Both the position numbers and the translations under genes were made by a program. Positions 3,944 to 19,693 of a stretch of 64,000 nucleotides of DNA are shown piece after piece. The notes beneath the pieces were generated by a model. The model did no database searches. It was not told the origin of the DNA and saw only the letters and a program-made list of their open reading frames with translations. The first letter of the stretch is position 1. Each line of letters begins with the position of its first letter. Source of the stretch: a virus. Taxonomy: Duplodnaviria; Heunggongvirae; Uroviricota; Caudoviricetes. The stretch is taken from positions 10,654 through 74,653 of IMG/VR virus record IMGVR_UViG_3300036770_002544, one strand, 5' to 3'.

Positions 3944-4014
3944 ATTCCGCAGAATCCGAGCTAGGTGCACGGACTTGACTGTTAATCAATGATTAGCTGG
4001 GTTCGAACCCCAGA
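3944..4014 (+). tRNA. tRNA-Asn(GTT)-like, degenerate acceptor and D arms
   Basis: Anticodon hairpin ttga-CTGTTAA-tcaa. T-arm ctggg-TTCGAAC-cccag. 3' end atgcgga-g-CCA. The 5' acceptor pairs only 5 of 7. Confidence 0.4.
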
Positions 4015-4018
4015 TGCG

Positions 4019-4094
4019 GAGCCAAACATGGGGGCAGCAGAGGGCTGCGGTGATCCCTTGCAAGGATCATGACTACAAGGGTTCGATACCCTGG
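4019..4094 (+). tRNA. tRNA-Ala(TGC)-like second copy, imperfect acceptor
   Basis: Anticodon arm gatcc-CTTGCAA-ggatc. T-arm aggg-TTCGATA-ccct. Ends ggcctcc-a-CCA. Confidence 0.45.
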
Positions 4095-4123
4095 GCCTCC
4101 ACCAAATAAGCAGATGACGTTTC

Positions 4124-4131
4124 TGCTCTTT
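4124..4131 (+). promoter_or_regulatory. TATAAATA box (T4-type late-promoter-like)
   Basis: tataaata lies 29 nt upstream of the 4160 ATG. A second copy sits at 2432-2439 upstream of a tRNA. Confidence 0.3.
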
Positions 4132-4159
4132 TGTATAAATAAAACAAAGGAGATCGAGC

Positions 4160-4546
4160 ATGAACGTTAATCAAAAGGGCAACATAGGCTTGCTAAAAGT
4201 CATAGGAGACTTGTATAATAAAGGCTACACAGTGTTTAAGCCTTTTGACGATTACAATCCAGTTGACTGTATTGCGATGAACGCAGAAGGCAAGACATTT
4301 AGATTACAGGTGAAGTATCGCAGTCCCGATCGAGATGACTCGTACGAGATTTCTGCTTCATCTATGGTAAATGGTAAGAGAGCACAAATTAACCGCGGAC
4401 TCATTGATTATTGGGCTGTATACCTGTCAGATTTAGACCAGGTAGTGTACATGCCGATAAGTATGATGGAAGGTAAAAAAGTTCACTACATTACCAGAAA
4501 ACAATTAGGTGAGATGGATGAGAGGTTGAAATCGGCACCCTGCTAA
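4160..4546 (+). CDS. hypothetical protein (possible small PD-(D/E)xK-like nuclease)
   Basis: RBS aaggagatcgagcATG. The 3' end overlaps the 5' half of tRNA-Ser by about 38 nt. Confidence 0.5.
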   Translation: MNVNQKGNIGLLKVIGDLYNKGYTVFKPFDDYNPVDCIAMNAEGKTFRLQVKYRSPDRDDSYEISASSMVNGKRAQINRGLIDYWAVYLSDLDQVVYMPISMMEGKKVHYITRKQLGEMDERLKSAPC

Positions 4547-4599
4547 GGTGTTTTCTTAGGAAACTAGGGACGTGGGTTCGAATCCCACTCTCACCACCA
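4508..4599 (+). tRNA. tRNA-Ser(GCT), class II
   Basis: Acceptor ggtgaga/tctcacc. Anticodon arm gcacc-CTGCTAA-ggtgt. Long variable arm. T-arm gtggg-TTCGAAT-cccac. aCCA. Confidence 0.8.
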
Positions 4600-4629
4600 A
4601 TTCGAAGTCTAGCAAACTTCAAAGTTTTC

Positions 4630-4703
4630 GCCCCTGTAGTTAAATGGTAGAACATCGGTTTTGTAATCCGAGGACGGGAGTTCGATTCTCTCTAGGGGCA
4701 CCA
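4630..4703 (+). tRNA. tRNA-Thr(TGT)
   Basis: Acceptor gcccctg/taggggc. D-arm gtt-aaatggtag-aac. Anticodon loop TTTGTAA. T-arm gggag-TTCGATT-ctctc. aCCA. Confidence 0.7.
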
Positions 4704-4710
4704 AATTTAT

Positions 4711-4786
4711 TCCTCAGTAGCTCAGTTGGTAGAGTAGCGGACTGTTAATCCGTTGGTCGCTGGATCGTGCCCAGCCTGGGGAGCCA
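4711..4786 (+). tRNA. tRNA-Asn(GTT)
   Basis: Acceptor tcctcag/ctgggga. D-arm tagctcagttggtagagta. Anticodon arm gcgga-CTGTTAA-tccgt. T-arm gctgg-ATCGTGC-ccagc. gCCA. Confidence 0.85.
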
Positions 4787-4794
4787 AACAAAAT

Positions 4795-4870
<76 letters not shown>

Positions 4871-4876
4871 GGATCA

Positions 4877-5909
4877 GATGTATACTCTAGACTTTTGCGA
4901 AGTTTATATCACTAATGTATGCAATTTAAATTGCACTCATTGTAATCGTTTTAATAATTTTGCTTTTGCAGGACACTCGCGGTGGGAAGATTACCAGCAC
5001 GATTACCAGCAATGGGCAAAAAAAGTAAATTTTAACAGTATCAGTATCCTTGGTGGAGAACCGTTATCCAACCCTGATTTTTTAAATTGGATGCATGGTA
5101 TTGCCACCGTGTGGAACAGTGCAGAAATATCTATTCTCACCAATGGGACACAGTTAGATAGATGGCCCAGTTTGTACAAAGAAATAAAAAAATACAACGG
5201 TCGTGTCACTGTTGTTATAAGCGAACATAGTCCGCAGCACTGGCTTGATGCCATTGGCAATGTAAAAAATTTTTTGCAAGGAACAATAGAAAATCAGGAA
5301 CATAAAACTTGGAAACAGTCTTATGATTCGATCAAAGATTCGTCATGGCCCGACTGCAATACCCCTGATGATTTTTATACCTTGCCTGAGCACATTCAAA
5401 CCGAATGTCAAACAGTGTTTAACATACACCCAACAAACAATGAATTTTCAGCCACCAGCGAGCGTGTTCATTTTTACAAAGACTCTAACAATGTAAAAAT
5501 TCTACTAGAGCCAAGTTGGATGTTTAAACCTAATGCATTGATATACCAAAGCACAAATCAAATTGATTTATACAACAGTGATCCAGAAAAAGCAATAAAA
5601 GCATGCACCATGAAAAAATGTCCGCAGTTCAGTCGCGGCAAACTTTACAAGTGCCCGCCGGTGACTGTGCTAGGTGATTTCATACAGCAATTCTCAATCA
5701 ATGTGTCTGACGCTGATAAGCAACTGATAGATGCGTATAAGCCTGCGTCACACTGTTGGCCTGATGATCAACTTAAGAAATTTTTAGATGATTTAACAGA
5801 TTTAAAAACAATCCCACAATGCAAGTTTTGTCCAGAAGAACTTCCATTTATTAAGTTTTCAGCTGGGACTAAAAAAATCAAACTGTTAAAAAAACAAAAC
5901 TTATCATAA
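4877..5909 (+). CDS. radical SAM protein with C-terminal Cys-rich (SPASM/twitch-like) region
   Basis: CNLNCTHC Cx3Cx2C at residues about 15-22. Extra Cys pairs near the C-terminus (CTMKKCPQF, CKFCPE). The table ORF 4767 start runs through tRNAs; the true start is taken as ATG 4877. Confidence 0.7.
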
Positions 5910-5913
5910 AAAA

Positions 5914-5989
<76 letters not shown>

Positions 5990-6038
5990 AACAAGCCTAC
6001 ACTCAATCCTGCCGCGATGACAGTCCCTGGGCTTTTAC

Positions 6039-6117
6039 ACCACTTTAGCTCAGTTGGACTTAGAGCACTGTGCTACGAACGCAGGGGTCGGGAGTTCGAA
6101 TCTCTCAGGTGGTACCA
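6039..6117 (+). tRNA. tRNA-Arg(ACG)
   Basis: Acceptor accactt/aggtggt. D-arm gctc/gagc. Anticodon arm ctgtg-CTACGAA-cgcag. T-arm gggag-TTCGAAT-ctctc. aCCA. Confidence 0.85.
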
Positions 6118-6242
6118 TTTTGTAATACTTGTGTTTGCCAAAAAGGTAAACCAAAGTATACATTTTTCGGGGCTCGGACGTTTTACAGCGATTCTTTTCT
6201 GCAGAACGTACAAAGATCCACAAGCAAGTAAAACAACAGCAA

Positions 6243-6271
6243 TTGACTCAAAATGACATCTGTTGTATAAT
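6243..6271 (+). promoter_or_regulatory. sigma70-type promoter (TTGACT-N17-TATAAT)
   Basis: ttgactcaaaatgacatctgttgtataat, upstream of the tRNA-Lys pair. Confidence 0.5.
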
Positions 6272-6379
6272 ACATTTTTAATTAGGAACATTGACATGAA
6301 ACGTTCAGCGAAACGATAGTGTCGTCTCAGTACCCTGTATGGTCTGGGATGGCACGTAAAAGACAATTTTTACATCCAT

Positions 6380-6454
6380 CCCTTTGAGATGTTAAGGCAG
6401 CATGCCGGACTCTTAATCCGTGACGTGTGGGTTCGACTCCCACCAGAGGGACCA
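6380..6454 (+). tRNA. tRNA-Lys(CTT)
   Basis: Acceptor ccctttg/cagaggg with G:U pairs. Anticodon loop CTCTTAA. T-arm gtggg-TTCGACT-cccac. aCCA. Confidence 0.7.
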
Positions 6455-6458
6455 TATA

Positions 6459-6535
6459 GGGTTGATAGTTTAATGGCTAAAACATCCGGCTTTTAACCGG
6501 TAAGAGTCAGGGTTCGAATCCCTGTCGACCCACCA
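6459..6535 (+). tRNA. tRNA-Lys(TTT)
   Basis: Acceptor gggttga/tcgaccc. Anticodon arm ccgg-CTTTTAA-ccgg. T-arm caggg-TTCGAAT-ccctg. aCCA. Confidence 0.85.
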
Positions 6536-6668
6536 TATAAAAACATTTTTGACGGGCATCATCGCCAACGCATAGTCGCGGTGCTCTGTTCGGTGACCCT
6601 GGCAGGTTGCGAAAATCTATTGTGCCAGCAATAAGAGAATTATTGAAAATGTTTCTATATGGTATTAT

Positions 6669-6743
6669 GGAGTCGTTAGTTTAGTGGTAAAACCGCGGGT
6701 TGTGATTCCGCTATCACGGGTTCGATTCCCGTACTTCTCCCCA
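6669..6743 (+). tRNA. tRNA-His(GTG) with G-1
   Basis: Anticodon arm gcggg-TTGTGAT-tccgc. D-arm gtt-tagtggtaa-aac. T-arm acggg-TTCGATT-cccgt. 3' end acttctc-c-CCA with an extra 5' G. Two internal acceptor mismatches. Confidence 0.65.
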
Positions 6744-6744
6744 A

Positions 6745-6819
6745 GGTGATATGACGTAGACGGATGCGTAGCGGTTTCATAAGCCGACGAGGTTGGGTCG
6801 GTACCAACTATCACCACCA
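6745..6819 (+). tRNA. tRNA-Met(CAT)-like with non-canonical T-loop
   Basis: Perfect acceptor ggtgata/tatcacc. Anticodon loop TTCATAA. T-arm gttgg-GTCGGTA-ccaac lacks TTC. aCCA. Confidence 0.55.
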
Positions 6820-6820
6820 C

Positions 6821-6895
6821 CGGTCCTTATTTCAATGGATAGAATGCCATGCTTCGAACTTGGCGATGTGGGTTCGATTCCTGCAGGACCGGCCA
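6821..6895 (+). tRNA. tRNA-Arg(TCG), anticodon assignment tentative
   Basis: Perfect acceptor cggtcct/aggaccg. Anticodon loop CTTCGAA. T-arm gtggg-TTCGATT-cctgc. gCCA. Confidence 0.55.
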
Positions 6896-6938
6896 AATGA
6901 TTTGTTAGTGCTGTATATGAACGAATAAATATTTTTTT

Positions 6939-7703
6939 ATGACTATTACTAAATTCACTACTGCACAACAACAGCTTTTGAAATTTGTATTAACGTGTGT
7001 CTCTTCTGTGCTGGGTATCTATGTATACCTAATACTAGGCGGCACCTTACTCAAGGCATTTCTGATATATCTATGTTTTGTATTAGTATCTAGAGTTGCA
7101 AACCTAGGTTATCATAGATGGCTGGCACACAACTTGTTAGAACCTGATTTGTTTGGTAGAATTTTTATACTATGGTGTATGGTAAGTTCGGCGTTAGTGA
7201 AGCCTTTGCCCTATGTCATAGGTCATAGACTGCATCACAAATATTCAGACACTGATAAAGATCCTCATCATCCCGGACTAGGGTTATGGGCTTGCTTGAT
7301 AGGAAACTTTAATGTCGTTGAAAACTTAACAATACCAGTAAAAGATTTGTATAGAAAAAAAGAAGTAATGTTTGTCAATAGATATTACTATCAATTATAT
7401 CTTGCAAACTTGCTATTGTTTTGGTTCATTGACAAAGATATAGTGCTACTAAGTTTCTCACTGTTAAACTTGCGTATGTGGGTCAACATAACTGTGTTCA
7501 ACTATCTTGCACACGGAGGTAAGCACGGAAAATCTCCTAAAAATTTGCCAGCCTGGACTAGTTACGTGTTAGGATATTCGGGAGAACAGTTACACAAAAA
7601 TCATCATGATGATCCTTCGTCTAGCGATTTTGGTAAATTGTCAAGATGGAATTTTGATATCATGTACAAAGTGTACAGCAAAATAGTCAAAGTTAAAAAT
7701 TAA
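6939..7703 (+). CDS. membrane fatty-acid (acyl-lipid) desaturase, delta-9-like
   Basis: Three His boxes HRWLAH, HRLHH, HKNHH. Multiple hydrophobic segments. Confidence 0.8.
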   Translation: MTITKFTTAQQQLLKFVLTCVSSVLGIYVYLILGGTLLKAFLIYLCFVLVSRVANLGYHRWLAHNLLEPDLFGRIFILWCMVSSALVKPLPYVIGHRLHHKYSDTDKDPHHPGLGLWACLIGNFNVVENLTIPVKDLYRKKEVMFVNRYYYQLYLANLLLFWFIDKDIVLLSFSLLNLRMWVNITVFNYLAHGGKHGKSPKNLPAWTSYVLGYSGEQLHKNHHDDPSSSDFGKLSRWNFDIMYKVYSKIVKVKN

Positions 7704-7752
7704 CACTCGGTGATTTCTGTACTACTATTAATCATAGTGTAGGTTATCATCT

Positions 7753-7781
7753 AGTTGACAACAAAACAATCTGCTGTTATA
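7753..7781 (+). promoter_or_regulatory. sigma70-type promoter (TTGACA-N17-TATACT) with palindrome over the -10
   Basis: ttgacaacaaaacaatctgctgttatact. gctgt-tatacta-cagc inverted repeat. Upstream of tRNA-Val. Confidence 0.5.
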
Positions 7782-7818
7782 CTACAGCATGTTCTTTAAA
7801 AATTAAGTTTGATAGTTT

Positions 7819-7903
7819 GCCCCTGTAGCTCAGTGGTAGAGCATCGCTTCGACAAAGCGAGGGTCGGTGGATCGTTCCCACCCAGTGGTACCAGTGTTAT
7901 TTA
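7819..7903 (+). tRNA. tRNA-Val(GAC)
   Basis: D-arm gctc-agtggtag-agc. Anticodon arm tcgct-TCGACAA-agcga. T-arm ggtgg-ATCGTTC-ccacc. cagtggt-a-CCA. Confidence 0.75.
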
Positions 7904-8088
7904 CACTGAGAATCTATCCAGGCCAGTGCCGACATCATGTTGGTAAAATAGCGCATGGTAAGTTTTTCATCGTAAATATCATTGACAAAGATGTAACAAG
8001 CGTCAGCAGTGTCGTTAACTGATAGGTGTATATGCATGTATCCGTTGGCAACTATGAAGTCTCGTGTTTGCATATTTTTATTTATTTT

Positions 8089-8162
8089 GCGGGATTGGCA
8101 TAAGGGTTGTGCAGTAGCCTTCCAAGCTACCCATAGCGGTTCGAGACCGCTATCCCGCTCCA
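8089..8162 (+). tRNA. tRNA-Gly(TCC)
   Basis: Perfect acceptor gcgggat/atcccgc. Anticodon arm gtagc-CTTCCAA-gctac. T-arm agcgg-TTCGAGA-ccgct. tCCA. Confidence 0.8.
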
Positions 8163-8169
8163 CAATTTA

Positions 8170-8244
8170 GGGTGATTAGCTCAGCGGTAGAGTCGCTGCC
8201 TTACACGCAGTTTGTCGGGAGTTCGATCCTCTCATCACCCACCA
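8170..8244 (+). tRNA. tRNA-Val(TAC)
   Basis: Acceptor gggtgat/atcaccc. D-arm gctc-agcggtag-agt. Anticodon arm gctgc-CTTACAC-gcagt. T-arm cggga-GTTCGAT-cctct. aCCA. Confidence 0.85.
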
Positions 8245-8252
8245 ACTTATTT

Positions 8253-8330
8253 CCGAGTGTAGCGCAGTCTGGTTAGCGCATCTGCTTTGGGAGCAGAGGG
8301 TCGTAGGTTCGAATCCTACTACTCGGACCA
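8253..8330 (+). tRNA. tRNA-Pro(TGG)
   Basis: Acceptor ccgagtg/tactcgg. D-arm gcgc-agtctggtta-gcgc. Anticodon arm tctgc-TTTGGGA-gcaga. T-arm gtagg-TTCGAAT-cctac. aCCA. Confidence 0.85.
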
Positions 8331-8337
8331 ATTCAAT

Positions 8338-8415
8338 GTACAGGTGGCAGAGTGGCCCAATGCAAGGGATTGCAAATCCCTAAAGCCGTCGGTTCAAATC
8401 CGACCCTGTACTCCA
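8338..8415 (+). tRNA. tRNA-Cys(GCA)
   Basis: Acceptor gtacagg/cctgtac. Anticodon arm aggga-TTGCAAA-tccct. T-arm gtcgg-TTCAAAT-ccgac. tCCA. Confidence 0.8.
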
Positions 8416-8420
8416 TCTAA

Positions 8421-8510
8421 GGAAGCGTGGTCGAGTGGTCTATGGCTCCGGTCTTGAAAACCGGCGATTACGAAAGTGGTCCGTGAGTTCGAATCTCACC
8501 GCTTCCACCA
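8421..8510 (+). tRNA. tRNA-Ser(TGA), class II
   Basis: Acceptor ggaagcg/cgcttcc. Anticodon arm ccggt-CTTGAAA-accgg. Long variable arm. T-arm gtgag-TTCGAAT-ctcac. aCCA. Confidence 0.85.
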
Positions 8511-8515
8511 TATAT

Positions 8516-8591
8516 GCCGCGGTAGCTCATCAGGTAGAGCAGCAGACTGAAAATCTGTGTGTGGCTGGTTCGAGTCCAGCTCGTGGCACCA
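8516..8591 (+). tRNA. tRNA-Phe(GAA)
   Basis: Acceptor gccgcgg/tcgtggc. D-arm tagctcatcaggtagagca. Anticodon arm gcaga-CTGAAAA-tctgt. T-arm ctggt-TCGAGTC-cagc. aCCA. Confidence 0.85.
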
Positions 8592-8592
8592 A

Positions 8593-9234
8593 TCAATGTC
8601 TATTAGGATCTCGAGTTTTTTCAAACTCTGGCACATGTTCGTTGCAACCAGGAAACCATGCTGGGGCAGGTGGAAGATCACACACTTCTCTAGTGAGATC
8701 TATCAACAAAATGAGACGCCGCTCTGAAGTGTTGTTCCAAACACTATGCAACTTTTGATTGTTGAAAGAAAAGACATCATCCCATAGTACAATTTCGTTT
8801 TCAACTTCGAAACCAATGTCGCCATCAGGAACGTACAAAGGAATATGGATGCGAATGCTTTTGGCATCTCTGTTTTCTATGCCAGTGTGTCTGTAAATAA
8901 TAGAGTTGGGTTCTACAATACTGTAACCAGCTAGGTGGCAGTGTTGTCCAAAAGCTTCAACTAATGAAAATGCAGTGGGATACCGAAGTCTATTGGATTC
9001 TGCAAGAACTCCTGATATATGTTTGATGCCTGATATTTTCCAGGCATTTTCTTTATCGTACAAGGTAGAATTTTGTCCAGTAGGATTTTGACGGTAAGGC
9101 ACGCTAGTAAATTTTTCTCCCGACTGGAAGTCTGGGTGCGCTTTGACAAAGTCTGCAAGTAAAGCAGGTTGTAACGCTCTAAACAATGCAGCAAATTTAA
9201 CTTCGTCGCCGCGATAGATATTTTTAAGTTCCAT
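8593..9234 (-). CDS. aspartyl/asparaginyl beta-hydroxylase-family (AspH-like, 2OG-Fe oxygenase cupin) protein
   Basis: Motif HTGIENRDAKSIRIHIPL matches the AspH H-x-G...N...R-x-H-x-PL signature. Paralog of 10868-11545. Confidence 0.6.
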   Translation of the reverse strand: MELKNIYRGDEVKFAALFRALQPALLADFVKAHPDFQSGEKFTSVPYRQNPTGQNSTLYDKENAWKISGIKHISGVLAESNRLRYPTAFSLVEAFGQHCHLAGYSIVEPNSIIYRHTGIENRDAKSIRIHIPLYVPDGDIGFEVENEIVLWDDVFSFNNQKLHSVWNNTSERRLILLIDLTREVCDLPPAPAWFPGCNEHVPEFEKTRDPNRH

Positions 9235-9291
9235 AGATACTTTCTTTAAAAATATTTATTGATCGTTATGGTACATTTATAATTTAACATT

Positions 9292-9366
9292 GTCCCTGTA
9301 GTTCAATGGATAGAACCGGTTCCTCCTAAGAACAAAATATCAGTTCGATTCTGGTCAGGGATACCA
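9292..9366 (+). tRNA. tRNA-Arg(CCT)
   Basis: Acceptor gtccctg/cagggat. D-arm gttcaatggatagaac. Anticodon loop CTCCTAA. T-arm atcag-TTCGATT-ctggt. aCCA. Confidence 0.75.
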
Positions 9367-9371
9367 AGCAT

Positions 9372-9448
9372 GCCCTGGTGGTGGAATTGGCAGACACACT
9401 GCGTTGAGGTCGCAGGTTCTACGGGTTCGAGTCCCGTCTAGGGTACCA
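9372..9448 (+). tRNA. tRNA with anticodon GAG (Leu-decoding) but short variable loop
   Basis: Acceptor gccctgg/ctagggt. Anticodon arm ctgcg-TTGAGGT-cgcag. T-arm acggg-TTCGAGT-cccgt. aCCA. At 77 nt it lacks the class II long arm expected of bacterial tRNA-Leu. Confidence 0.65.
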
Positions 9449-9802
9449 AGTTTTGTAGTAACCAGAGTCCTGTGTAAAAGGTGTTGCGGACGTCATGCGC
9501 TCTTTTTATCGCATGGGTCAATAAAGATCGAAGCGCAAACTAATAAGGTTGTGTCCTTGCCTACTACAGATTAGTTTTGCAAACAATAAAAACGTGTAGG
9601 GGTAATACCCCTTGAAGCTCTGTGCAGAGATGCACATCTTCTATGGATCAGTTGGTGGGATGAGAGGTCCTTCCCTGTTGCCGGTGTCAAGAGTTATCCA
9701 TTGTGGGAGCCGGAGTGCCAACCCAGGTCGATAGTTTACAGCCACACGCCCTAGCGAAACCGGATTGTTTGCAATTTTTTATTGTTGTTGAGAAGAAAAG
9801 AA

Positions 9803-10018
9803 ATGTATAAAATAGCAGAAAAAGAATTTGCCAATCTGGAGTTGGCAATGGCACATGCCAGGCAGTTAAATGAGTTTGTAACTATTGCTGGACCCGACTT
9901 TGAAGTTTGTGGCCGCTTTGGGGTAGATAGCGTTGAACGCGGGCTGTGCCCTGATGGTATTGCATACGATTGGAACAAGGCCAGTCGTACAGGTCGCGTA
10001 CAACGCGAACGAGTCTAA
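9803..10018 (+). CDS. hypothetical small protein
   Basis: ORF following a roughly 330-nt structured noncoding stretch. Weak RBS. Confidence 0.3.
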   Translation: MYKIAEKEFANLELAMAHARQLNEFVTIAGPDFEVCGRFGVDSVERGLCPDGIAYDWNKASRTGRVQRERV

Positions 10019-10108
10019 CGGAGGGTTAACTGGGCTGGGCCCAGCACTGTCTCGAAAACAGATGGACTGTGAAAACGGTTGGAGTTCGATTCTGCCATCC
10101 CTCTTCCA
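10019..10108 (+). tRNA. tRNA-like element (Ser CGA-type loop) with non-canonical T-arm
   Basis: Acceptor ggagggt/tccctct-t-CCA. Hairpin ctgt-CTCGAAA-acag. D region ctggg-ctgggc-cccag. The T-arm does not fold canonically. Confidence 0.3.
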
Positions 10109-10113
10109 ATTTT

Positions 10114-10184
10114 TGGCTCACTCTAGCTGATCTTGCGGGGTCCAAACTCTCAAGTCTCGGGTGCGATTCCTGAAGGGCCAGCCA
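10114..10184 (+). tRNA. tRNA-like element (acceptor plus T-arm only clearly foldable)
   Basis: Acceptor tggctca/agggcca-g-CCA. T-arm tcggg-TGCGATT-cctga. No clear anticodon arm. Confidence 0.3.
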
Positions 10185-10241
10185 TATACCGGTTTACACA
10201 AAACCGTAATATCAAGTATAATATATACTTGTGCAACCAAT

Positions 10242-10318
10242 GCCCCTGTGATGGAATTGGTATACGTGTCGGATTCAAAATCCGAATTTTGCGGGTTCGA
10301 GTCCCGCTGGGGGCACCA
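10242..10318 (+). tRNA. tRNA with anticodon CAA (Leu-decoding), short variable loop
   Basis: Acceptor gcccctg/tgggggc with G:U pairs. Anticodon arm tcgga-TTCAAAA-tccga. T-arm gcggg-TTCGAGT-cccgc. aCCA. Confidence 0.6.
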
Positions 10319-10333
10319 TTTTATAGAAAGACC

Positions 10334-10807
10334 ATGATGAAGAAAATCGATCTAGAACAAGTACGCCAGTTTATTGAAGCACAAACACCAGAAACAAAAA
10401 TCTATCTGGGTTGTGACTCCGAACGTCTGCGTGTCGACGGCCGTTGGTATGCCGATTATATTCTAGCGATTGTTGTTCACATCAATGGCAACAACGGTTG
10501 TAAGATTTTCGGCGAAGTACATCGTGAACCGGTGTGGGATGCCAAGCCAGGCAAGCCAAGTATGCGTCTTATGACCGAAGTGTACAAAGTCAGCGAACTG
10601 TATCTCAAGTTAGCAGAAGTGTTAGAAGGTCGACAAGTCGAAGTTCACTTGGACATCAACCCCGACGAACACTATGGATCAAGCTGTGTTATTAGCCAAG
10701 CTGTGGGCTACATCAAAGGCACTTGCAACGTGGTTCCGTTCGTCAAGCCACATGCGTTTGCTGCTAGTTATGCTGCTGACCGATTCAAGGGTTTGAGAGC
10801 AGCCTAA
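10334..10807 (+). CDS. hypothetical protein
   Basis: ATG immediately after the tRNA. The table ORF 10133 start runs through the tRNA, so the internal Met start MMKKIDLEQ is taken. Followed by a strong terminator. Confidence 0.5.
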   Translation: MMKKIDLEQVRQFIEAQTPETKIYLGCDSERLRVDGRWYADYILAIVVHINGNNGCKIFGEVHREPVWDAKPGKPSMRLMTEVYKVSELYLKLAEVLEGRQVEVHLDINPDEHYGSSCVISQAVGYIKGTCNVVPFVKPHAFAASYAADRFKGLRAA

Positions 10808-13031: not shown

Positions 13032-13331
13032 ATGATTGGAATTGACTTAGTTGATGTTCGTAGATTTGAGGCAACAACAAGACTGCCTCAATTTATCAAA
13101 CGATTCCATGTTAGTGGGGACTCGCCACTGGATGTAGCAAAAACTTGGGCATGTTTGGAAGCCATTATCAAAGCAGAAGATCAACCGTTTGACCCAACAA
13201 GTATTAGTATTCAATTTGTCGCAGGACAACGACCGCAAGTCAATGATCCGCACAATATACTAAGCAAGCCGTATATACTAAGTCTGAGCCATGATGCAGA
13301 TCTGGTCATCGCAGTAGCATTGCGGACTTGA
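13032..13331 (+). CDS. acpS: holo-ACP synthase-like 4'-phosphopantetheinyl transferase
   Basis: N-terminal MIGIDLVDVRRFE and LSLSHDADLVIAVAL resemble AcpS signatures. SD aggag 8 nt upstream. Confidence 0.6.
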   Translation: MIGIDLVDVRRFEATTRLPQFIKRFHVSGDSPLDVAKTWACLEAIIKAEDQPFDPTSISIQFVAGQRPQVNDPHNILSKPYILSLSHDADLVIAVALRT

Positions 13332-13356
13332 CAAGTGTTGTATTTTTTGTTATACT
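13328..13356 (+). promoter_or_regulatory. sigma70-type promoter (TTGACA-N17-TATACT)
   Basis: ttgacaagtgttgtattttttgttatact. Shares the TATACTACA box with promoters 7753 and 19741. Confidence 0.5.
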
Positions 13357-13378: not shown

Positions 13379-13699
13379 ATGAGCAACGATCTAGCAAAAT
13401 TCTTAAACAGCCGCAGGCGCCATAAAACTGACGTAGCAATTGCCCGGCAAGTTAAAATTGCCAAGAGTCACGGCTTGGGATTTAACGACAAACACATTAA
13501 AGAACCACATCGGCATGCTAAACATCATGCTATGGACTGCGGTAACCCACAATGTGGACTATGCGGCAATCCACGACATGTTCGCAAAGGTGGTTCAGGT
13601 GGTGGCGGACTAACTGTACAAGAACGTCGACAGCATCAAGATCTTGAACGCACCACCGATCGACACTCAAACGGCATTAAACCAAAGGACTCAGAATGA
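13379..13699 (+). CDS. hypothetical basic Cys/His-rich protein
   Basis: ORF with SD aaaaggtgctaaATG. Gly-rich linker GGSGGGG. Confidence 0.45.
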   Translation: MSNDLAKFLNSRRRHKTDVAIARQVKIAKSHGLGFNDKHIKEPHRHAKHHAMDCGNPQCGLCGNPRHVRKGGSGGGGLTVQERRQHQDLERTTDRHSNGIKPKDSE

Positions 13700-13968
13700 A
13701 AATTAACCCCAAAGACCCTACCATTGGCCTTTCAAATCAAGCCGCTGTTGACGCAATCGGCAACCGTTACGATCTAGTTTTGATTGCTGCTCGTCGAGTG
13801 CGAGAACTGCATCGCGGTGATGCTCGTAAGGTAGACGAGCACCGATGCGGTGCTACATTAACTGCACTGCTAGAAATTGAAGAAGGCAAAGTAGGTCGTG
13901 ACTATTTGTACAAAGAAACCGACGTTGAGACTCGCCGAACAAGAAAACATCGTACTAGTACTTTGTAA
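13696..13968 (+). CDS. rpoZ: RNA polymerase omega subunit (RpoZ)-like protein
   Basis: AVDAIGNRYDLVLIAARRVRELHRGD...TLTALLEIEEGKV parallels E. coli RpoZ ([23 protein letters not shown]...IALREIEEGLI). Confidence 0.5.
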   Translation: MKINPKDPTIGLSNQAAVDAIGNRYDLVLIAARRVRELHRGDARKVDEHRCGATLTALLEIEEGKVGRDYLYKETDVETRRTRKHRTSTL

Positions 13969-13981: not shown

Positions 13982-14010
13982 TTGCCCAAAATCTCCTGAT
14001 GTGCTATAAT
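13982..14010 (+). promoter_or_regulatory. sigma70-type promoter (TTGCCC-N17-TATAAT) embedded in an inverted repeat
   Basis: ttgcccaaaatctcctgatgtgctataat. The inverted repeat aaaatctcct / aggagatttt spans the -10 and the SD. Confidence 0.55.
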
Positions 14011-14032
14011 AACGCATATTAGGAGATTTTTT

Positions 14033-14251
14033 ATGTTTGACTGGCTTAAACAATTGTTCGGCAAAGGTACTGTTCGTGTTGAATTTGAGGCAGTCGACGA
14101 TAAGTTTGATGTGCTCAAGGGCAGTGCAAAAGTGCCATATATCGGCCGATATGACGAAGATGAAGTCAAGCGCATTGTGCGAAACAAAATTGCAGTGCAG
14201 CATGGCGTTATCGTTACCAAAATTAATGTAGTTGCCCGCGACGGGTTTTAA
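14033..14251 (+). CDS. hypothetical protein
   Basis: SD aggag. First gene of a tightly coupled operon. Confidence 0.5.
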   Translation: MFDWLKQLFGKGTVRVEFEAVDDKFDVLKGSAKVPYIGRYDEDEVKRIVRNKIAVQHGVIVTKINVVARDGF

Positions 14252-14260: not shown

Positions 14261-14674
14261 ATGCCCTGGATTCAGAACGTTAGCATGAGCGATGTCAAGC
14301 AAGGCTTGCACTTCGACGCCGGTGTTAACAGTATGCTGATCCAAATTGTTGATCCGGCATACGAGTTTCCCGTTCCGTTGAAGAAGTTCAAGGAAGTACA
14401 CCAGTTTGAGTTCTTGGACGTTGAGGCAACGGATAAGGAATTTGAGGAGTTTGCTTGCACACAAGAGCAGGCTGCAGAACTTGTTCGCTTGCTCAAGCAT
14501 GCATTGTCTAATCGTATGAACGTTGTAGTTCACTGCCACGCCGGTATTTGCCGATCGGGTGCAGTCTGCGAAGTGGGTACTATGATGGGGTTCGATGATA
14601 CAGAAGTGTTTCGTGCGCCTAATCTGTTGGTCAAGCATTTGATGATGAAGCAATTAGGATGGACTTATGAATAA
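14261..14674 (+). CDS. protein tyrosine / dual-specificity phosphatase
   Basis: CX5R active-site motif VVHCHAGICRSGAV. SD aaggaaataacATG. Confidence 0.7.
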   Translation: MPWIQNVSMSDVKQGLHFDAGVNSMLIQIVDPAYEFPVPLKKFKEVHQFEFLDVEATDKEFEEFACTQEQAAELVRLLKHALSNRMNVVVHCHAGICRSGAVCEVGTMMGFDDTEVFRAPNLLVKHLMMKQLGWTYE

Positions 14675-14975
14675 AGTAATTCGGGATGGAATGGTTGCAG
14701 TGCTGTACTCTCCCGAACACGGTGCAGGCTGGTGGACCTGGAATACCGAGCACACAGATATGTTGTTTGACCCGGGCATGGTTGGCCTAGTTGAAAAGTA
14801 CGATGTTGAGCAGATGCGTGTTTATGCAGAACTCAAGTGGCCCGATGCTTACTTAGGTGGATTGGACAGCCTACAAATCGAGTGGCTCCCAGAAGGCTCA
14901 AAGTTTATTGTAGAAGAATACGATGGGTTTGAAAGTATTCTTACTATCGAGAACACTGTTTGGATAACAGCATGA
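14667..14975 (+). CDS. hypothetical protein (C-terminus ESIL...W resembles the downstream array family)
   Basis: ATGA start/stop overlap with both neighbours. Confidence 0.45.
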   Translation: MNKVIRDGMVAVLYSPEHGAGWWTWNTEHTDMLFDPGMVGLVEKYDVEQMRVYAELKWPDAYLGGLDSLQIEWLPEGSKFIVEEYDGFESILTIENTVWITA

Positions 14976-15136
14976 AAAACCCTTTGCAGTGGCAATACAA
15001 TGGTGCGGCGCCAATGCAAGTACTCATAGCCTGGTGTGAGCAACACATTCCCGATGAGTATGTTTATCACGGTTGGGAAAGTATTTTGTTTCTAACTGAA
15101 CGTGCAAAGACATTATTTTTGCTGAGGTGGTCATGA
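14972..15136 (+). CDS. LRWS-family small protein, array member 0 (54 aa, below the ORF-track cutoff)
   Basis: Hand translation MKNPLQWQYNGAAPMQVLIAWCEQHIPDEYVYHGWESILFLTERAKTLFLLRWS. ATGA overlap upstream; TGAGGTGGTCATGA junction downstream. Confidence 0.5.
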   Translation: MKNPLQWQYNGAAPMQVLIAWCEQHIPDEYVYHGWESILFLTERAKTLFLLRWS

Positions 15137-15372
15137 AACCCTGTGAACTACAACCAATGATAGTCCGAGCCGTGGAAAGAATAGGAATAAATGATTATTG
15201 GCAACTTCCTCCGGAAGCAAGAGTAATTACCGGCAATCCTAAATATGACGCACAACTTCATTATATGTTAGTTGAGTTTGGGGTGGAAGTAGAGTTAGAT
15301 CGATACGGCATGAAAGATTACCGTGTAGTTGATGAACAAAAATTCATGATGTTTTTGTTGAGGTGGTCATGA
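15133..15372 (+). CDS. LRWS-family small protein, array member 1
   Basis: Ends ...EQKFMMFLLRWS. Junction tgaggtggtcATGa. Confidence 0.6.
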   Translation: MKPCELQPMIVRAVERIGINDYWQLPPEARVITGNPKYDAQLHYMLVEFGVEVELDRYGMKDYRVVDEQKFMMFLLRWS

Positions 15373-15581
15373 CAGCACAATACAGTCGTAGCCGAGATCT
15401 TGTTCATCGTGTGGAAGTGCCACATTCGGGTGGTTGGGTCTGGGGCGAGGATCAAAGGTTTGAATGGTGCAAACAGAACTGCCAGGACGATTATCGTGGC
15501 GCAATGTTTCGCCGAGACCGAACTGTGTGGCATTTTAAATCACAGAAGGATGCTGTGATGTTTGCGCTGAGGTGGTCATGA
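15369..15581 (+). CDS. LRWS-family small protein, array member 2
   Basis: Ends ...QKDAVMFALRWS. Identical junction. Confidence 0.6.
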   Translation: MTAQYSRSRDLVHRVEVPHSGGWVWGEDQRFEWCKQNCQDDYRGAMFRRDRTVWHFKSQKDAVMFALRWS

Positions 15582-15817
15582 CAATACCCGAACATTACAA
15601 CCATCGAGTACAAGTAAAGTTAAAATTGCGAGACATCTTTGAACTTGAACATAGACTCGAGGAATTAAATTATATCCGCGCTTGGTTAGACGAATTAGTA
15701 GAATGGCAACCGGATGCGTTTACGATAAAATATTATGATCGAGGAAATGGTGCTGTAATCGATGTTTGGTTTGCCGATGAACGACATGCTATGATTTGTG
15801 CGTTGAGGTGGTCATGA
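15578..15817 (+). CDS. LRWS-family small protein, array member 3
   Basis: Ends ...ERHAMICALRWS. Identical junction. Confidence 0.6.
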   Translation: MTIPEHYNHRVQVKLKLRDIFELEHRLEELNYIRAWLDELVEWQPDAFTIKYYDRGNGAVIDVWFADERHAMICALRWS

Positions 15818-16014
15818 AATACTGGAACAAAGACAAACGGATTCGCCAGCAGAACTGGTATGCAGTCCCATCGGGTAACAGGCGGCCCTATGCTGACACC
15901 AAACGCGAGTTACAACTATTTGACAGTCCGGGTAAGTTTTATCTATACTACGGCAGTAGCACTATTTGGTTTGAGCGTGAACAAGATGCATTGTGGTGGA
16001 GATTGAAATCATGA
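15814..16014 (+). CDS. LRWS-family small protein, array member 4
   Basis: Ends ...EQDALWWRLKS. ATGA overlap. Confidence 0.55.
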   Translation: MKYWNKDKRIRQQNWYAVPSGNRRPYADTKRELQLFDSPGKFYLYYGSSTIWFEREQDALWWRLKS

Positions 16015-16199
16015 AAGTTTATCAAGTTGCAGGTTATCCAAAGAATCATTATTTTGTCAAAGACTTTCAAGAGTTATTGAACATAATGAGTTGGATGACC
16101 AAGAACGATGTAGGTTACTTGCACGAATCTAGCAGCATACATGGCTATGGGTTTAGTGTTAAAAAGAATTTTGAATGGTTTAGTTTGAAGTGGTTATGA
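16011..16199 (+). CDS. LRWS-family small protein, array member 5
   Basis: Ends ...KNFEWFSLKWL. ATGA overlap. Confidence 0.55.
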   Translation: MKVYQVAGYPKNHYFVKDFQELLNIMSWMTKNDVGYLHESSSIHGYGFSVKKNFEWFSLKWL

Positions 16200-16405
16200 G
16201 TTACGAAGTTGTAATACCGTATGATCCTGCTTGGGAACCACTAGACTGGGCCAAGGAACATTGTCCTAGTTATATTACAAACCGAGCAATTGCTCAAGAA
16301 ACAAAATATGATATAATAGTTCGTGCGTACTATAACGATTACGATGTTGTCTATTATTTCAGCGAAGGAAAGGATGCAACAGCGTTTGCATTGAAGTGGA
16401 AATGA
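16196..16405 (+). CDS. LRWS-family small protein, array member 6
   Basis: Ends ...GKDATAFALKWK. ATGA overlap. Confidence 0.55.
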   Translation: MSYEVVIPYDPAWEPLDWAKEHCPSYITNRAIAQETKYDIIVRAYYNDYDVVYYFSEGKDATAFALKWK

Positions 16406-16724: not shown

Positions 16725-17339
16725 ATGCCCGCAGTATTTTTAGTTAGCGACACGCACTTTGGTCACACAGGCGTATGTCGCTTTACCCGAGAGGACGGGG
16801 TTACAAAGTTACGGCCCTGGGACTCGGCCGAAGAAATGGACGAGGCGATGATCAAGTCTTGGAACGAGCGTGTTCGTCCCAACGATAAGGTCTATCACTT
16901 GGGCGATGTGGTTATTAACCGCCGTGCGTTAAAGACATTAAGCCGCTTAAACGGCGACAAAGTTTTAATCCGCGGCAACCACGACATCTTCCGTGACACA
17001 GAGTACATGGAATATTTCCGCGAGTTACGTGCATACCACGTTATGAACGGAATGATCTTAAGCCATATTCCTGTACACGAAGCAAGTTTAGGGCGCTTTG
17101 GTACTAACATTCACGGTCACTTACATGCCAGTCGTGTAAAGCGGGCTCGCGGTGTTGATGCAAAGACTGGTGCAGTGTTATACAGCGATGAAAACGATTT
17201 ACGTTATCACTGTGTATGTGTAGAGCAAACACCCGACTTTGCACCTATCTTGTTAGAAGATGTGTACAAGCGCATCGAAGCCGAAGGCGGAACAGTAGGG
17301 TTCAATCCCAATGCTTACGGCAACGGTAGTGCCATGTGA
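16725..17339 (+). CDS. calcineurin-like metallophosphoesterase (Ser/Thr phosphatase-like)
   Basis: DTHFGH, GDVV, GNHD, GHLH motifs. SD aaggagg. Confidence 0.75.
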   Translation: MPAVFLVSDTHFGHTGVCRFTREDGVTKLRPWDSAEEMDEAMIKSWNERVRPNDKVYHLGDVVINRRALKTLSRLNGDKVLIRGNHDIFRDTEYMEYFRELRAYHVMNGMILSHIPVHEASLGRFGTNIHGHLHASRVKRARGVDAKTGAVLYSDENDLRYHCVCVEQTPDFAPILLEDVYKRIEAEGGTVGFNPNAYGNGSAM

Positions 17340-17793: not shown

Positions 17794-18138
17794 ATGCGTC
17801 TCGAAAAAAGTGTTGCTGTTGCAGTTGAATTTGCTGAAAAAGTTGCTCTGGCTCGAGTGCGATTTAAAAATGCAAAACTTTCCCAAATGGATATGGATTG
17901 GTACGAATCAAAATGGAAAACATTTTCAAATTCTGCCGAAGTAGATCACATGCTCAACACGTTAACTGATGCTTTATCGTTGTATTGGGACGTTGATCAG
18001 GAACTAAAATTAGACCCTACAAATTTAAAATTATTTTTAAACAGGGCAGAAATGACCAGACAAATTAGCAAAATTAGGCACAAGTTATTTTTGTTAGCAT
18101 CTGATGCTAACACAAACAAAGCATCAGATGGCATATGA
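17794..18138 (+). CDS. hypothetical protein
   Basis: ORF. Confidence 0.4.
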   Translation: MRLEKSVAVAVEFAEKVALARVRFKNAKLSQMDMDWYESKWKTFSNSAEVDHMLNTLTDALSLYWDVDQELKLDPTNLKLFLNRAEMTRQISKIRHKLFLLASDANTNKASDGI

Positions 18139-19693
18139 TTGTATTATTTTTACAGATGTAACTTACACAAATCTGGTGTATAAGCCAATGGGTGCTTATA
18201 AGTTAGCAAATCATCTGAGATCCAGTGGGTACAGTTGTTTAGTAGTTGATCATTTTCATACTTTTACTCAGCAGCAAATTTTAGATATTATTGCTGCGTC
18301 AGTAGGACCAGAAACTAAATTTGTTGGGTTTAGTATTGCTTTCTTCAATAGTGTAGAAGGTACTAATCCAATGGATCCGATATCTGATAATACCTATAAA
18401 CCGTTAGAATATAATCAATCGTTTTGTCCGCAAGGACAGGCATTTGAAATTGCATTGGTCTCTGCCATTCACGATATCAACAGCCATTGCAAAATAGTAT
18501 TAGGTGGTGCGGCCAGGATCAGCAATCAGATTAAAAATCCCAGGGTAGATTACGTGATTTCGGGATTCGCCGAAGTTGCTATATTAGATTTAGTGCATTC
18601 TTTGGAGCTTGGTCAGGTTCCGGGTACAGCAGTAAAAAATATATGGGGAACGCACATCATAGATGGTGGATCAGCTGAGTCATTTGACTATCAGCACAGC
18701 GAGATGGTATGGCAACCCGAAGATGTGGCTGGTATAAAAGTTTTACAACTCGATGTATCTCGTGGCTGCAAATTTAACTGTACTTTTTGCGACTGGAGCA
18801 TGCGTGGTACCAAGAATAACAAATGGACACGCGAAATAGACGTTCTTGCTTCAGAACTTCAGCGCAATTATGATCAGTATGGCATATATCGATACTTTGT
18901 ACATGACCATACTTTTAACGAAAGTGACTACAAACTCAATGTAGTCAAACAAGCAGTCAAACAATTAACATTTCAGCCCATCATCTGGTGTCACGTCAGA
19001 CCAGATTTACTAGTTAAATACCCCAACCGTACTGATACCATGTACGAAGTTGGTGTCAGGAGCATGATGATGGGTATCGAGACCCTGGACCCAGATGTGG
19101 CCAAAACTGTAGGCAAAGGTCTTGCACCAGAAAAAATCATTGCTGAATTAAAAAATATTCAACAACGCTACGGCAACGAGTTGTTGACCCATGGTAATTT
19201 TGTCATTGGCTTACCAGGCGAATCTATTGACAGTGTTCTTGCTACCGCTGCACGATTAGAAAACGGAGATATTTCGTTGCACCATTGGAGCTACAATGCA
19301 TTGATGATCAGCACAGATCATAACAATTGGTGGGGGTCTACATACGAACAAGATCCGGCCAGATACGGCTACACAGAAAACAAAAACACAATCACGACAG
19401 GATTTAATATTGATTATAGAAAAAATTCACTGATGAACTGGCGCAATGATCATATGACCTTTGAACAAGCTATGCATCTGAACAAAAAGTTATACGACTC
19501 GGCAGCCGATAACCCAGCCTATCTGGTAGACAGCATGGTCAGTTGGGCATTGATGGGTTTCACTGACCTAGACTTTAAAGGCATACAGAAGTTGCGTCCC
19601 CGGGATATTGATTGGTTTTCAGTGTCCAAGCAACGATTGCACTATCTATACGATTACAAGAAAAATATAATTAAACATGTGCACGGTAAATAA
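18128..19693 (+). CDS. radical SAM protein with N-terminal B12-binding-like domain (class B-like)
   Basis: CKFNCTFC Cx3Cx2C at about residue 210. The N-terminal region is Rossmann-like. Confidence 0.65.
   Translation: MAYDCIIFTDVTYTNLVYKPMGAYKLANHLRSSGYSCLVVDHFHTFTQQQILDIIAASVGPETKFVGFSIAFFNSVEGTNPMDPISDNTYKPLEYNQSFCPQGQAFEIALVSAIHDINSHCKIVLGGAARISNQIKNPRVDYVISGFAEVAILDLVHSLELGQVPGTAVKNIWGTHIIDGGSAESFDYQHSEMVWQPEDVAGIKVLQLDVSRGCKFNCTFCDWSMRGTKNNKWTREIDVLASELQRNYDQYGIYRYFVHDHTFNESDYKLNVVKQAVKQLTFQPIIWCHVRPDLLVKYPNRTDTMYEVGVRSMMMGIETLDPDVAKTVGKGLAPEKIIAELKNIQQRYGNELLTHGNFVIGLPGESIDSVLATAARLENGDISLHHWSYNALMISTDHNNWWGSTYEQDPARYGYTENKNTITTGFNIDYRKNSLMNWRNDHMTFEQAMHLNKKLYDSAADNPAYLVDSMVSWALMGFTDLDFKGIQKLRPRDIDWFSVSKQRLHYLYDYKKNIIKHVHGK

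Follow-up and report, generated by a model that had tools for sequence, protein, structure and literature searches.

An RNA polymerase omega (RpoZ)-like gene with a remodelled N-terminus in a putative jumbo phage

Why would a phage that is probably transcribed by the RNA polymerase (RNAP) of its host carry a gene for one of the core subunits of that enzyme? The question is raised by a 64,000-nucleotide (nt) stretch of DNA, hereafter called the window, which spans positions 10,654 to 74,653 of the IMG/VR virus record IMGVR_UViG_3300036770_002544. An open reading frame (ORF) at positions 13696–13968 (+) of the window, with an ATG start and a product of 90 amino acids (aa) plus stop, encodes a homologue of RpoZ, the omega subunit of bacterial RNAP. 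A first-pass annotation, made from the letters of the window, had already described this product as RpoZ-like. Here, we examined the identity of this protein (the window omega), the phage lineages in which its relatives occur, the parts of omega that have been kept and rewritten, and the organization of its locus.

Identity and fold of the omega-like protein

The profile PF01192 (RNA_pol_Rpb6) matched residues 18–66 of the window omega over profile positions 3–51 of 53, with a score of 41.6 bits, clear of the gathering cut-off of 26 (E-value 1.2e-10), and the NCBIfam rpoZ equivalog model TIGR00690 scored 36.3 bits (cut-off 23.6). Two lineage-specific equivalog models remained below their cut-offs (NF001579, 30.2 vs 58; NF001588, 14.1 vs 76), and the window omega therefore falls outside those particular cellular sub-lineages. 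When phmmer was run against all PDB sequences, 25 of 25 matches were omega chains, the top one being Vibrio cholerae omega (9gdo_E, E-value 3.6e-10), and residues 14–71 aligned with residues 6–64 of Escherichia coli omega (E-value 2.7e-9). The similarity to the E. coli and Vibrio proteins extended over the entire conserved core (approximately 58 residues, 45–49% identity) and was not of low complexity. Upstream of this core, there was no further canonical start codon besides the ATG at 13696.

An AlphaFold2 model based on an alignment of 116 relatives had predicted local distance difference test (pLDDT) values of 83–94 in the core, with helices at residues 15–21, 24–40, 53–62, and 68–72. The omega fold is present in this model: a short N-terminal helix is followed by a long helix with the motif NR[FY]xLVxxAxxRAxxL and by a third helix with ALxEIxxG. 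In a Foldseek search of the PDB, all 48 of the 48 best matches were omega chains within RNAP complexes, and the E. coli and Vibrio omegas superimposed with a root-mean-square deviation of 1.5–1.6 Å over 62 columns (template modelling score 0.62 when normalized by the query and 0.75–0.80 when normalized by the target). The columns that were invariant or near-invariant (≥90%) across the 116 relatives, namely N23, R24, Y25, L27, V28, L29, R34, R36, E37, and L38, and L58, E60, I61, E62, and G64, are the classical omega motifs. The phmmer match, the alignment of relatives, the AlphaFold2 model, and the Foldseek superposition together delimit a canonical omega core at residues 14–72 (13735–13911, +), with the motifs IGNRYDLVLIAARRVREL and TALLEIEEGKVG. 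The C-terminal tail that follows, KETDVETRRTRKHRTSTL (13912–13965, +), is basic (net charge +3) and predicted to be disordered, unlike the acidic, Gln-rich tail of E. coli omega.

By every testable criterion save the MAR/ppGpp sub-feature described below, the protein belongs to the omega family, and the ORF is almost certainly a phage-borne omega homologue. The first-pass annotation thus had the ORF and its translation exactly right, and sequence models, fold, and motifs all agree with its reading; its by-eye alignment to E. coli omega was reproduced by HMMER and phmmer. The RNA_pol_Rpb6 profile search and the structural superposition that it proposed as checks gave the clear results described above, and neither of the outcomes that it had named as counting against its reading, a lack of matches to RpoZ models or a similarity limited to a short low-complexity stretch, was observed.

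Because the whole omega core has been kept, docking on the host β′ subunit is the most likely mode of action. The phage protein would dock at the normal omega site, either on newly assembled RNAP or on that part of the RNAP pool that has no omega, and the outcome would be a phage-modified core enzyme. Judging from the conserved core, the phage omega probably binds host RNAP as omega does; for the whole statement, that a functional phage omega joins host RNAP and is incorporated into it, we see about an even chance. A different use of the same protein would be as a decoy, a free omega mimic that titrates a host factor or defence sensor, or sequesters the alarmone guanosine tetraphosphate (ppGpp), without joining RNAP. 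There is a general precedent in phage mimic proteins, and both termini of the window omega are altered, but the β′-binding core is its most conserved part, and omega is not known to bind ppGpp by itself, site 1 needing β′ as well (PMC7676912). We consider a decoy very unlikely.

Phage context and distribution of the omega family

Among 5.8 billion proteins, we found 133 clusters (90% identity) related to the window omega, all of which contained PF01192; most were 84–93 aa long and 55–86% identical. In a library of 50%-identity representatives, 202 sequences matched at E ≤1e-3 and 18 at E ≤1e-10, with enterobacterial-type omegas appearing only near 39–44 bits. The mean identity of the core was 57–69% among the phage clades, compared with 40–43% to five sampled cellular omegas. 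The median ratio of nonsynonymous to synonymous substitution rates (dN/dS) was 0.16 for 42 usable pairs drawn from 12 representative loci, a value to be read only as a qualitative sign of purifying selection on the family, with dS near saturation. The relatives were located on 15 IMG/VR viral contigs and also on metagenomic contigs of 318, 264, 244, 221, and 161 kb. For example, one relative with the N-terminus of cellular omegas (P0112, a MAR-type omega; see below) is encoded right after an RNaseH-like gene, a few kilobases from genes for a T4-type DNA polymerase B, UvsX, and a DnaB-like helicase, and another of the same type (P0093) lies on the 221-kb contig together with a gene for an HD_4 protein.

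The window itself appears to come from a T4-related jumbo phage, to judge from its gene content and from the contigs on which the omega relatives lie. Its MoxR-type ATPase (26990–28075) shared 51% identity with its counterpart in the Pseudomonas jumbo phage PA5oct, and the adjoining 423-aa protein (phrog_1314; the corresponding 423-aa protein of the related locus L003 carries DUF2201) shared 45% with that of the same phage, the next best matches of these proteins being in Sinorhizobium phage Phosso and Agrobacterium phage Atu_ph07. Furthermore, the RNaseH-like (DUF458) protein encoded at 10133–10807 shared 61% identity with its counterpart in Stenotrophomonas phage DLP_6, whose genome measures 168 kb. 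Within approximately 8 kb (2455–10318, +), there are 26 tRNA genes for many amino acids, with small ORFs between them; the window also has many small, tightly packed ORFs as well as auxiliary genes for radical SAM, TctC, ThyX, and sugar-modifying proteins and for TauD/PhyH-type dioxygenases. Several of the tRNAs were 81–93% identical to those of Achromobacter, Stenotrophomonas, Xanthomonas, and Ralstonia phages. Except for tRNA genes, megablast searches with the 12–16 kb and 1–25 kb regions found no DNA similarity to 50,697 phage records. The phage assignment is strong but indirect.

If the window were instead a cellular contig of a small or unusual bacterium, the gene would simply be the rpoZ of that bacterium. 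Related genes do occur on contigs binned to metagenome-assembled genomes (MAGs) of Haliscomenobacter, Polynucleobacter, and Lentimicrobiaceae, the annotation by the Joint Genome Institute is that of an ordinary omega subunit, and the 64-kb window yielded no capsid or terminase gene. Set against this are the 26 tRNA genes in 8 kb, the absence of rRNA and ribosomal protein genes among the window genes scanned, and the best matches of the window proteins, which are to jumbo phages. The gmk-rpoZ-spoT neighbourhood of cellular rpoZ is not present at the window omega, whose neighbours are of phage type; its relatives occur in IMG/VR, beside genes for T4-type DNA polymerase and UvsX, and on contigs of 220–320 kb; and even one of the MAG contigs (L025) has the phage synteny of an RNaseH-like gene, the gene found upstream of the window omega (up106; see below), omega, and a DSPc phosphatase gene. 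The identities of the core given above, higher among the phage clades than to cellular omegas, also argue against a cellular origin, which we regard as highly unlikely.

A phage genome could also hold such a gene as part of its own transcription machinery, with the window omega serving as the subunit of a phage-encoded multisubunit RNAP whose other genes lie elsewhere in the genome. Multisubunit RNAPs are known from some jumbo phages (PMC7598289), Rpb6 homologues are reported to form part of the polymerases of eukaryotic large DNA viruses (PMC10881513), and the genome of this phage is visible only in part. On the other hand, among cultured phages, several window proteins are most closely related to those of PA5oct-like and T4-like phages, a group without RNAPs; in the classification of Iyer et al., jumbo phages of groups 2 and 3 have no RNAP of their own and hijack the host enzyme (PMC7824862). 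The promoters in the window are sigma70-like, and the largest ORF of the window (863 aa; 38493–41087, −), considered as a hidden RNAP subunit and rejected, was unlike anything searched, with no match in PHROGs, Pfam, or the PDB sequences, RNAP chains included. A phage-encoded RNAP is therefore, like a cellular origin, highly unlikely, and we proceed from a phage type that would lack its own RNAP and be transcribed by the host enzyme.

Omega in a phage is described neither in the curated resources nor in the publications that we searched. PHROGs contains no family for omega, and tblastn searches of the 50,697 phage records with the window omega and with P0112 gave no match that we judged to be a genuine phage omega; the matches were to rpoZ of the E. 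coli or Salmonella type, in records that were short, unannotated, or evidently misassigned or contaminated, and to bacterial whole-genome shotgun (WGS) contigs. Four of these records labelled as Campylobacter, Escherichia, or Salmonella phages (MG065691.1, MG065686.1, OR845831.1, and OR851528.1) gave a tblastn match of 48.3%, identical to that of two Salmonella enterica WGS contigs that are likewise part of the phage collection; these matches probably reflect host contamination or chimeric assemblies, not phage omegas. A single-protein scan of GTDB genomes for the window omega found none, and a profile scan recovered, apart from stray MAG contigs, only true betaproteobacterial omegas with 43–47% identity. 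The words omega and RpoZ are absent from a comparative study of 224 jumbo-phage genomes and from a 2026 review, and no account of a phage-encoded omega came up in targeted searches of the literature. The view in the first-pass annotation that a phage copy of omega is unusual is borne out by these results.

The N-terminus and ppGpp site 1

In E. coli, the phosphates of ppGpp bound at site 1 of RNAP are coordinated by omega residues 2–5 together with R417 and K615 of β′, and when RNAP lacking omega is combined with an omega from which residues 2–5 have been deleted, the dissociation constant for ppGpp is >100 μM, compared with approximately 6–8 μM for intact sites (PMC7676912). The MAR motif in this segment is a recognized marker of the ppGpp function of omega (PMC6416229, PMC8743543). 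The N-terminal sequence M-A-R-[V/I]-T, the mark of a proteobacterial omega competent for ppGpp site 1, is not present in the window omega; the stretch that stands in its place is MKINPKDPTIGLS. In our alignment (A1), residues M1-A2-R3-V4-T5 of E. coli omega correspond to T9-I10-G11-L12-S13 of the window omega, so that a glycine occupies the position of Arg3, and the eight-residue extension that precedes them, MKINPKDP, leaves no free N-terminus at the position equivalent to M1. This remodelled N-terminus (13696–13734, +) had low pLDDT values in the AlphaFold2 model.

A census of the N-termini of 120 relatives showed that the remodelling is widespread in the family. An extension of approximately 6–20 residues followed by [A/T]-G-[L/I]-[S/T] occurred in 88 of them (the extended clade), 21 began with MAR[I/V]T at residue 1, as in proteobacterial omegas, and 4 began with MGLS. 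The PKDP motif was kept within the subclade nearest to the window omega, and the cellular betaproteobacterial omegas recovered in this study had the MAR[V/I]T N-terminus. As read from these alignments, the part of omega that holds β′ is kept in the window clade, and the part that contributes to holding ppGpp is rewritten.

The origin of the extension may lie close by. At 13676–13720, the 3′ end of the upstream gene (..GIKPKDSE, then stop) resembles the 5′ end of the omega gene (MKINPKDPT) in both peptide and DNA; the matching DNA strings, attaaaccaaaggac and attaaccccaaagac, are approximately 26 nt apart, in different frames, and occur in the PKDP subclade only. This hints at a local duplication as the source of the PKDP extension. 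We also considered whether the extension could act as an acidic plug of the basic ppGpp pocket and rejected the idea as a general mechanism: the extension is acidic in some subclades (e.g., QELEYEATLGLS), but in the PKDP subclade, the net charge of the N-terminal segment is 0 to +1 (three tabulated members).

Because the MAR(I/V)T segment, which coordinates the phosphates at site 1 together with β′, has been replaced in the window clade, RNAP that contains the phage omega is predicted to behave like the E. coli enzyme with omega-Δ(2–5), with normal assembly and poor binding of ppGpp at site 1. Phage transcription, including that of the 26 tRNA genes, would then be kept running during a stringent response caused by infection or starvation. 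Thus, the phage may be refitting the host polymerase rather than only redirecting it. That the selective value of the gene in the window clade consists in reduced ppGpp sensitivity is a tentative proposal, and we would not call it likely.

The main rival of this proposal is a plain assembly or stability role, in which an extra omega keeps β′ folding and assembling during host shut-off, and the differences at the termini reflect drift or the tuning of affinity. This is the canonical role of omega, and the β′-binding core is conserved in the MAR, MGLS, and extended clades alike. Moreover, part of the RNAP in normal cells lacks omega, and omega is approximately twofold lower in stationary phase (PMC7676912). 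Neutral drift, however, would not be expected to leave G-[L/I]-[S/T] and an extension before it in 88 of 120 relatives, or to keep the PKDP motif within the nearest subclade. E. coli can also do without omega, which makes it unclear what would be gained from merely having more of it. We regard a pure assembly role as possible but, on balance, doubtful.

A link between the phage omegas and alarmone metabolism was found in the gene order of related phages. In 13 related phage loci, a SpoT-type HD_4 protein of 178–185 aa is encoded 1.8–8 kb 3′ of the omega gene, the order in such loci (L001, L003, L021, and others) being omega, DSPc phosphatase, AAA_33 P-loop kinase, metallophosphoesterase, and HD_4. 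The AAA_33 kinase and metallophosphoesterase pair of these relatives presumably resembles the bacterial Pnkp-type RNA repair enzymes. When a phage HD_4 protein was used as the query, it shared 31–35% identity with the product of the gene located right after rpoZ in four betaproteobacterial genomes (cellular loci L028–L031). We take this gene to be spoT, in the classical rpoZ-spoT arrangement, which is known in Acidithiobacillia and E. coli (PMC6416229). The gene order and similarity are consistent with an ancestral capture of rpoZ together with the 5′ part of spoT, although the omega and HD_4 genes are only loosely linked in the phage relatives. The HD_4 gene in most relatives and the replaced MAR segment give more substance to the ideas of the first-pass annotation that a phage omega could influence RNAP assembly or (p)ppGpp sensitivity, ideas that are still hypothetical. 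A captured rpoZ-spoT fragment might have become a two-part weapon, in which the rewritten omega would remove site 1 and the stand-alone hydrolase, in most members, would destroy the alarmone; this extension of the proposal is speculative and rather improbable.

Several points weigh against reduced ppGpp sensitivity as the explanation of the window omega. The genes for the HD_4 hydrolase and the AAA_33 kinase were searched for and are absent from the window, as they are from the visible sequence of L016 and L025. L12 and S13 of the window omega are conservative matches to V4 and T5 of E. coli omega, and a partial ppGpp contact might persist; the effects of losing only site 1 are modest in E. 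coli, with site 2 (DksA) remaining in place (PMC7676912). Sister phage clades keep a perfect MARIT (P0112 and P0093), and at least two MAR-type omegas are phage-borne; blindness to ppGpp cannot, therefore, explain the whole family, and the primary benefit may be something common to all clades. With only 64 kb of the genome visible, RNAP subunits may be encoded elsewhere, and a proteobacterial host (perhaps Burkholderiales) is suggested only by the closest omegas, TctC, and the stray MAG contigs.

Compared with bacterial RpoZ (E. coli and V. cholerae), the window omega has the same fold, the same core motifs, a similar size, and 45–49% identity over approximately 60 residues, but it is phage-encoded, lies outside a gmk-rpoZ-spoT neighbourhood, has an extension and T-I-G-L-S in place of MAR, and ends in a basic tail. 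It may be a natural analogue of the E. coli omega-Δ(2–5) laboratory mutant, in which the core is likewise intact and the residues that contact the ppGpp phosphates are missing (PMC7676912); in the window omega, these residues are exchanged for others and preceded by an extension, whereas the mutant lacks them altogether. The MAR- and MGLS-type phage omegas (P0112 on L019/L020, P0093 on L021, and P0104 on L023) are of the same family (57–59% mean core identity) and occupy the same kind of locus, beside the RNaseH-like (DUF458) gene or upstream of the DSPc/AAA_33/Metallophos/HD_4 block, but they differ from the window omega in their length of 68–77 aa, their MARIT or MGLS start, and the lack of the upstream gene up106.

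The T4 proteins Alt, ModA, ModB, AsiA, and Alc and the phiKMV protein Rac are early factors that turn the host RNAP to phage use in phages that have no polymerase themselves (PMC7824862), an aim that the window omega would share. Those factors are phage-specific binders or enzymes, whereas the window omega is homologous to a core subunit and would replace that subunit. In the Rhodobacter capsulatus gene transfer agent (RcGTA), a phage-like element whose expression is omega-dependent, the activator GafA is reported to bind host omega (PMC9638019); in the window, it is the element that encodes an omega. The HD alarmone hydrolases of phages (SpoT-type HD_4), linked to omega in the 13 loci described above, act in the same pathway but are a different protein, and one that the window lacks.

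Known phage tactics are to bind, covalently modify, or inhibit the host RNAP or to bring in a separate enzyme, and a homologue of a core subunit would represent a different form of takeover. If the two-part reading is true, it would represent the first instance in which a virus exchanges a core subunit of host RNAP to alter the regulation of the enzyme. The phage omega family further suggests that, in jumbo-phage infection, the control of transcription by the stringent response is a pressure point. Omega is the least understood RNAP subunit, and the roles of omega and of site 1 have been debated owing to the mild phenotypes of mutants; the phage family, with more than 130 clusters and three N-terminal designs (MAR, MGLS, and extended/Gly), provides natural variants for reconstituted RNAP. 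Furthermore, some rpoZ sequences in metagenomic data are viral, which matters where rpoZ is used as a “bacterial” marker gene for metagenomes (e.g., PMC10134851).

Locus organization and neighbouring genes

The omega gene is closely joined to the gene upstream of it, up106 (13379–13699, +), which encodes a 106-aa protein with invariant His50, Cys54, Cys59, and Cys62 residues, an HCCC-type Zn-knuckle with the sequence CGNPR (motif H-x3-C-G-x3-C-x2-C-G-N-P-R). The stop codon of up106 overlaps the start codon of the omega gene in the sequence ATGA, and an overlap of 4, 8, or 11 nt between the Zn-knuckle and omega genes was found in 12 of the 12 loci with an extended N-terminus that we examined. 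The Shine-Dalgarno sequence of omega, AAAGGA (13684–13689, +), is located 6 nt before the ATG within the last codons (P-K-D) of up106, and this junction is conserved in the relatives.

Upstream of up106 lies a sigma70-like promoter candidate, TTGACA-17 nt-TATACT with a TG-extended −10 element (13328–13356, +), which matches the consensus at 11 of 12 positions and whose function we infer from this match. Its −10 element ends 22 nt 5′ of the first gene of the unit (13379), and its first four bases lie inside the end of the AcpS-like ORF, with the remainder in the gap before the Zn-knuckle gene. Comparable sites (10–12 of 12) were found 5′ of the orthologous gene in 6 of 11 related loci (L001, L004, L012, L013, L017, and L025); across the region, the total number of promoter matches showed no excess over shuffled sequences.

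Right after the omega stop codon, a 17-bp hairpin that ends in a U-run (13988–14030, +) has the appearance of a terminator. Its predicted folding energy is −25.3 kcal/mol (z = −6.9), none of 200 shuffled sequences was as stable, and it sequesters the AGGAG ribosome-binding site of the following gene. The consensus terminator scan did not call this hairpin, which has a 9-nt loop and an AT-rich stem, and its role as a terminator is inferred from its form. A further promoter candidate, TTGCCC-17 nt-TATAAT with the extended −10 sequence TGCTATAAT (13982–14010, +), was found by the promoter scan; it overlaps the hairpin and is probably where the next transcription unit begins.

The order of promoter, Zn-knuckle gene, omega gene, and hairpin looks like a compact two-gene unit of which omega is the second gene, and omega looks like an early gene transcribed by host RNAP. 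It would be expressed from the early-type sigma70-like promoter and translationally coupled to the gene before it. The first-pass annotation had placed omega in one operon region with the AcpS-like phosphopantetheinyl transferase and phosphatase genes. These genes are indeed its neighbours, but a single operon is not apparent: with a promoter-like site of its own at 13328–13356 and a strong hairpin after its stop codon, omega is not obviously co-operonic with them, and the layout of the locus makes the 106-aa Zn-knuckle gene its true operon partner.

This arrangement raises the alternative that the N-terminal extension and the basic tail of the window omega form a docking platform that would bring a phage factor or nucleic acid to RNAP, with the Zn-knuckle protein as one candidate. 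The strict start/stop overlap with the Zn-knuckle gene in the extended clade fits such a platform, as do the presence of up106 beside omega in every locus of that clade and its absence next to MAR-type and MGLS-type omegas. So do the charge (net +3) and the predicted disorder of the tail, and RcGTA GafA, which reportedly works via a direct interaction with omega (PMC9638019), provides a precedent. However, the up106 family is much larger than that of omega, approximately 17-fold, with more than 2,300 relatives on contigs of up to 378 kb and a mean column identity of 66–67%, and it also occurs on jumbo-phage contigs without omega, in the order NifU, up106, rubrerythrin. The up106 protein had no match in Pfam, the PDB, or cultured phages, matched phrog_4499 weakly, and gave an AlphaFold2 model (pLDDT 60.6) too poor for a fold search. 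We have therefore downgraded up106 as a dedicated partner of omega; it appears, from its distribution, to be a widespread phage protein that omega happens to adjoin. A docking platform seems to us unlikely, and incorporation of the phage omega into host RNAP at the normal omega site remains the preferred reading of the locus.

The region downstream of omega contains further regulatory features. At 13982–14035, the promoter candidate is superimposed on the hairpin, so that the −10 element falls within the loop and the 3′ arm contains the ribosome-binding site; some relatives (L015, L003, L005, and L013) have the same arrangement 3′ of omega, before the phosphatase gene. We take it to resemble the promoter-stem-loop cassettes of T4-type phages. 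The sequence TGCTATAAT occurs seven times in the window, on the plus strand only, compared with 0.86 occurrences expected (positions 14002, 16691, 26705, 29018, 29988, 30314, and 36175), and is often preceded by TTG(A/C)CCAAAA. These sites look like a family of sigma70-type extended −10 elements of phage early promoters.

The remaining neighbours of omega include the AcpS-like phosphopantetheinyl transferase gene at 13032–13331 (+), whose product matched the full length of the Pfam model with 22.5 bits against a threshold of 25, which makes the assignment plausible but below threshold. A dual-specificity phosphatase-like (DSPc) protein with an intact HC-x5-R motif (HCHAGICRS) is encoded at 14261–14674 (+); this gene stands beside omega in nearly all relatives, with 59–70% identity. 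A metallophosphoesterase, identified with Pfam, is encoded at 16725–17339. Between these two genes, where the relatives have the AAA_33 kinase, a tandem array of seven paralogous ORFs of 58–81 aa with overlapping stop and start codons occupies 14960–16405 (+). GTG serves as the start codon in five of the seven, whose products begin with MVM or MVE; most share a C-terminal motif (..LRWS, ..LKWL, or ..LKWK), and none had a family match.

Elsewhere in the window, genes for modifying enzymes form stretches at 44371–58279 (−) and at 9–1112 and 18104–19693 (+). Six ORFs were assigned as radical SAM paralogues by Pfam and PHROGs, four of them in a run of consecutive minus-strand ORFs at 46–58 kb, and a Nol-type carbamoyltransferase is encoded at 44371–45849 (−), with TauD-, PhyH-, and Asp/Arg-hydroxylase-like oxygenases nearby. 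This combination of radical SAM, carbamoyltransferase, and oxygenase genes suggests a cluster for the modification of a peptide or small molecule.

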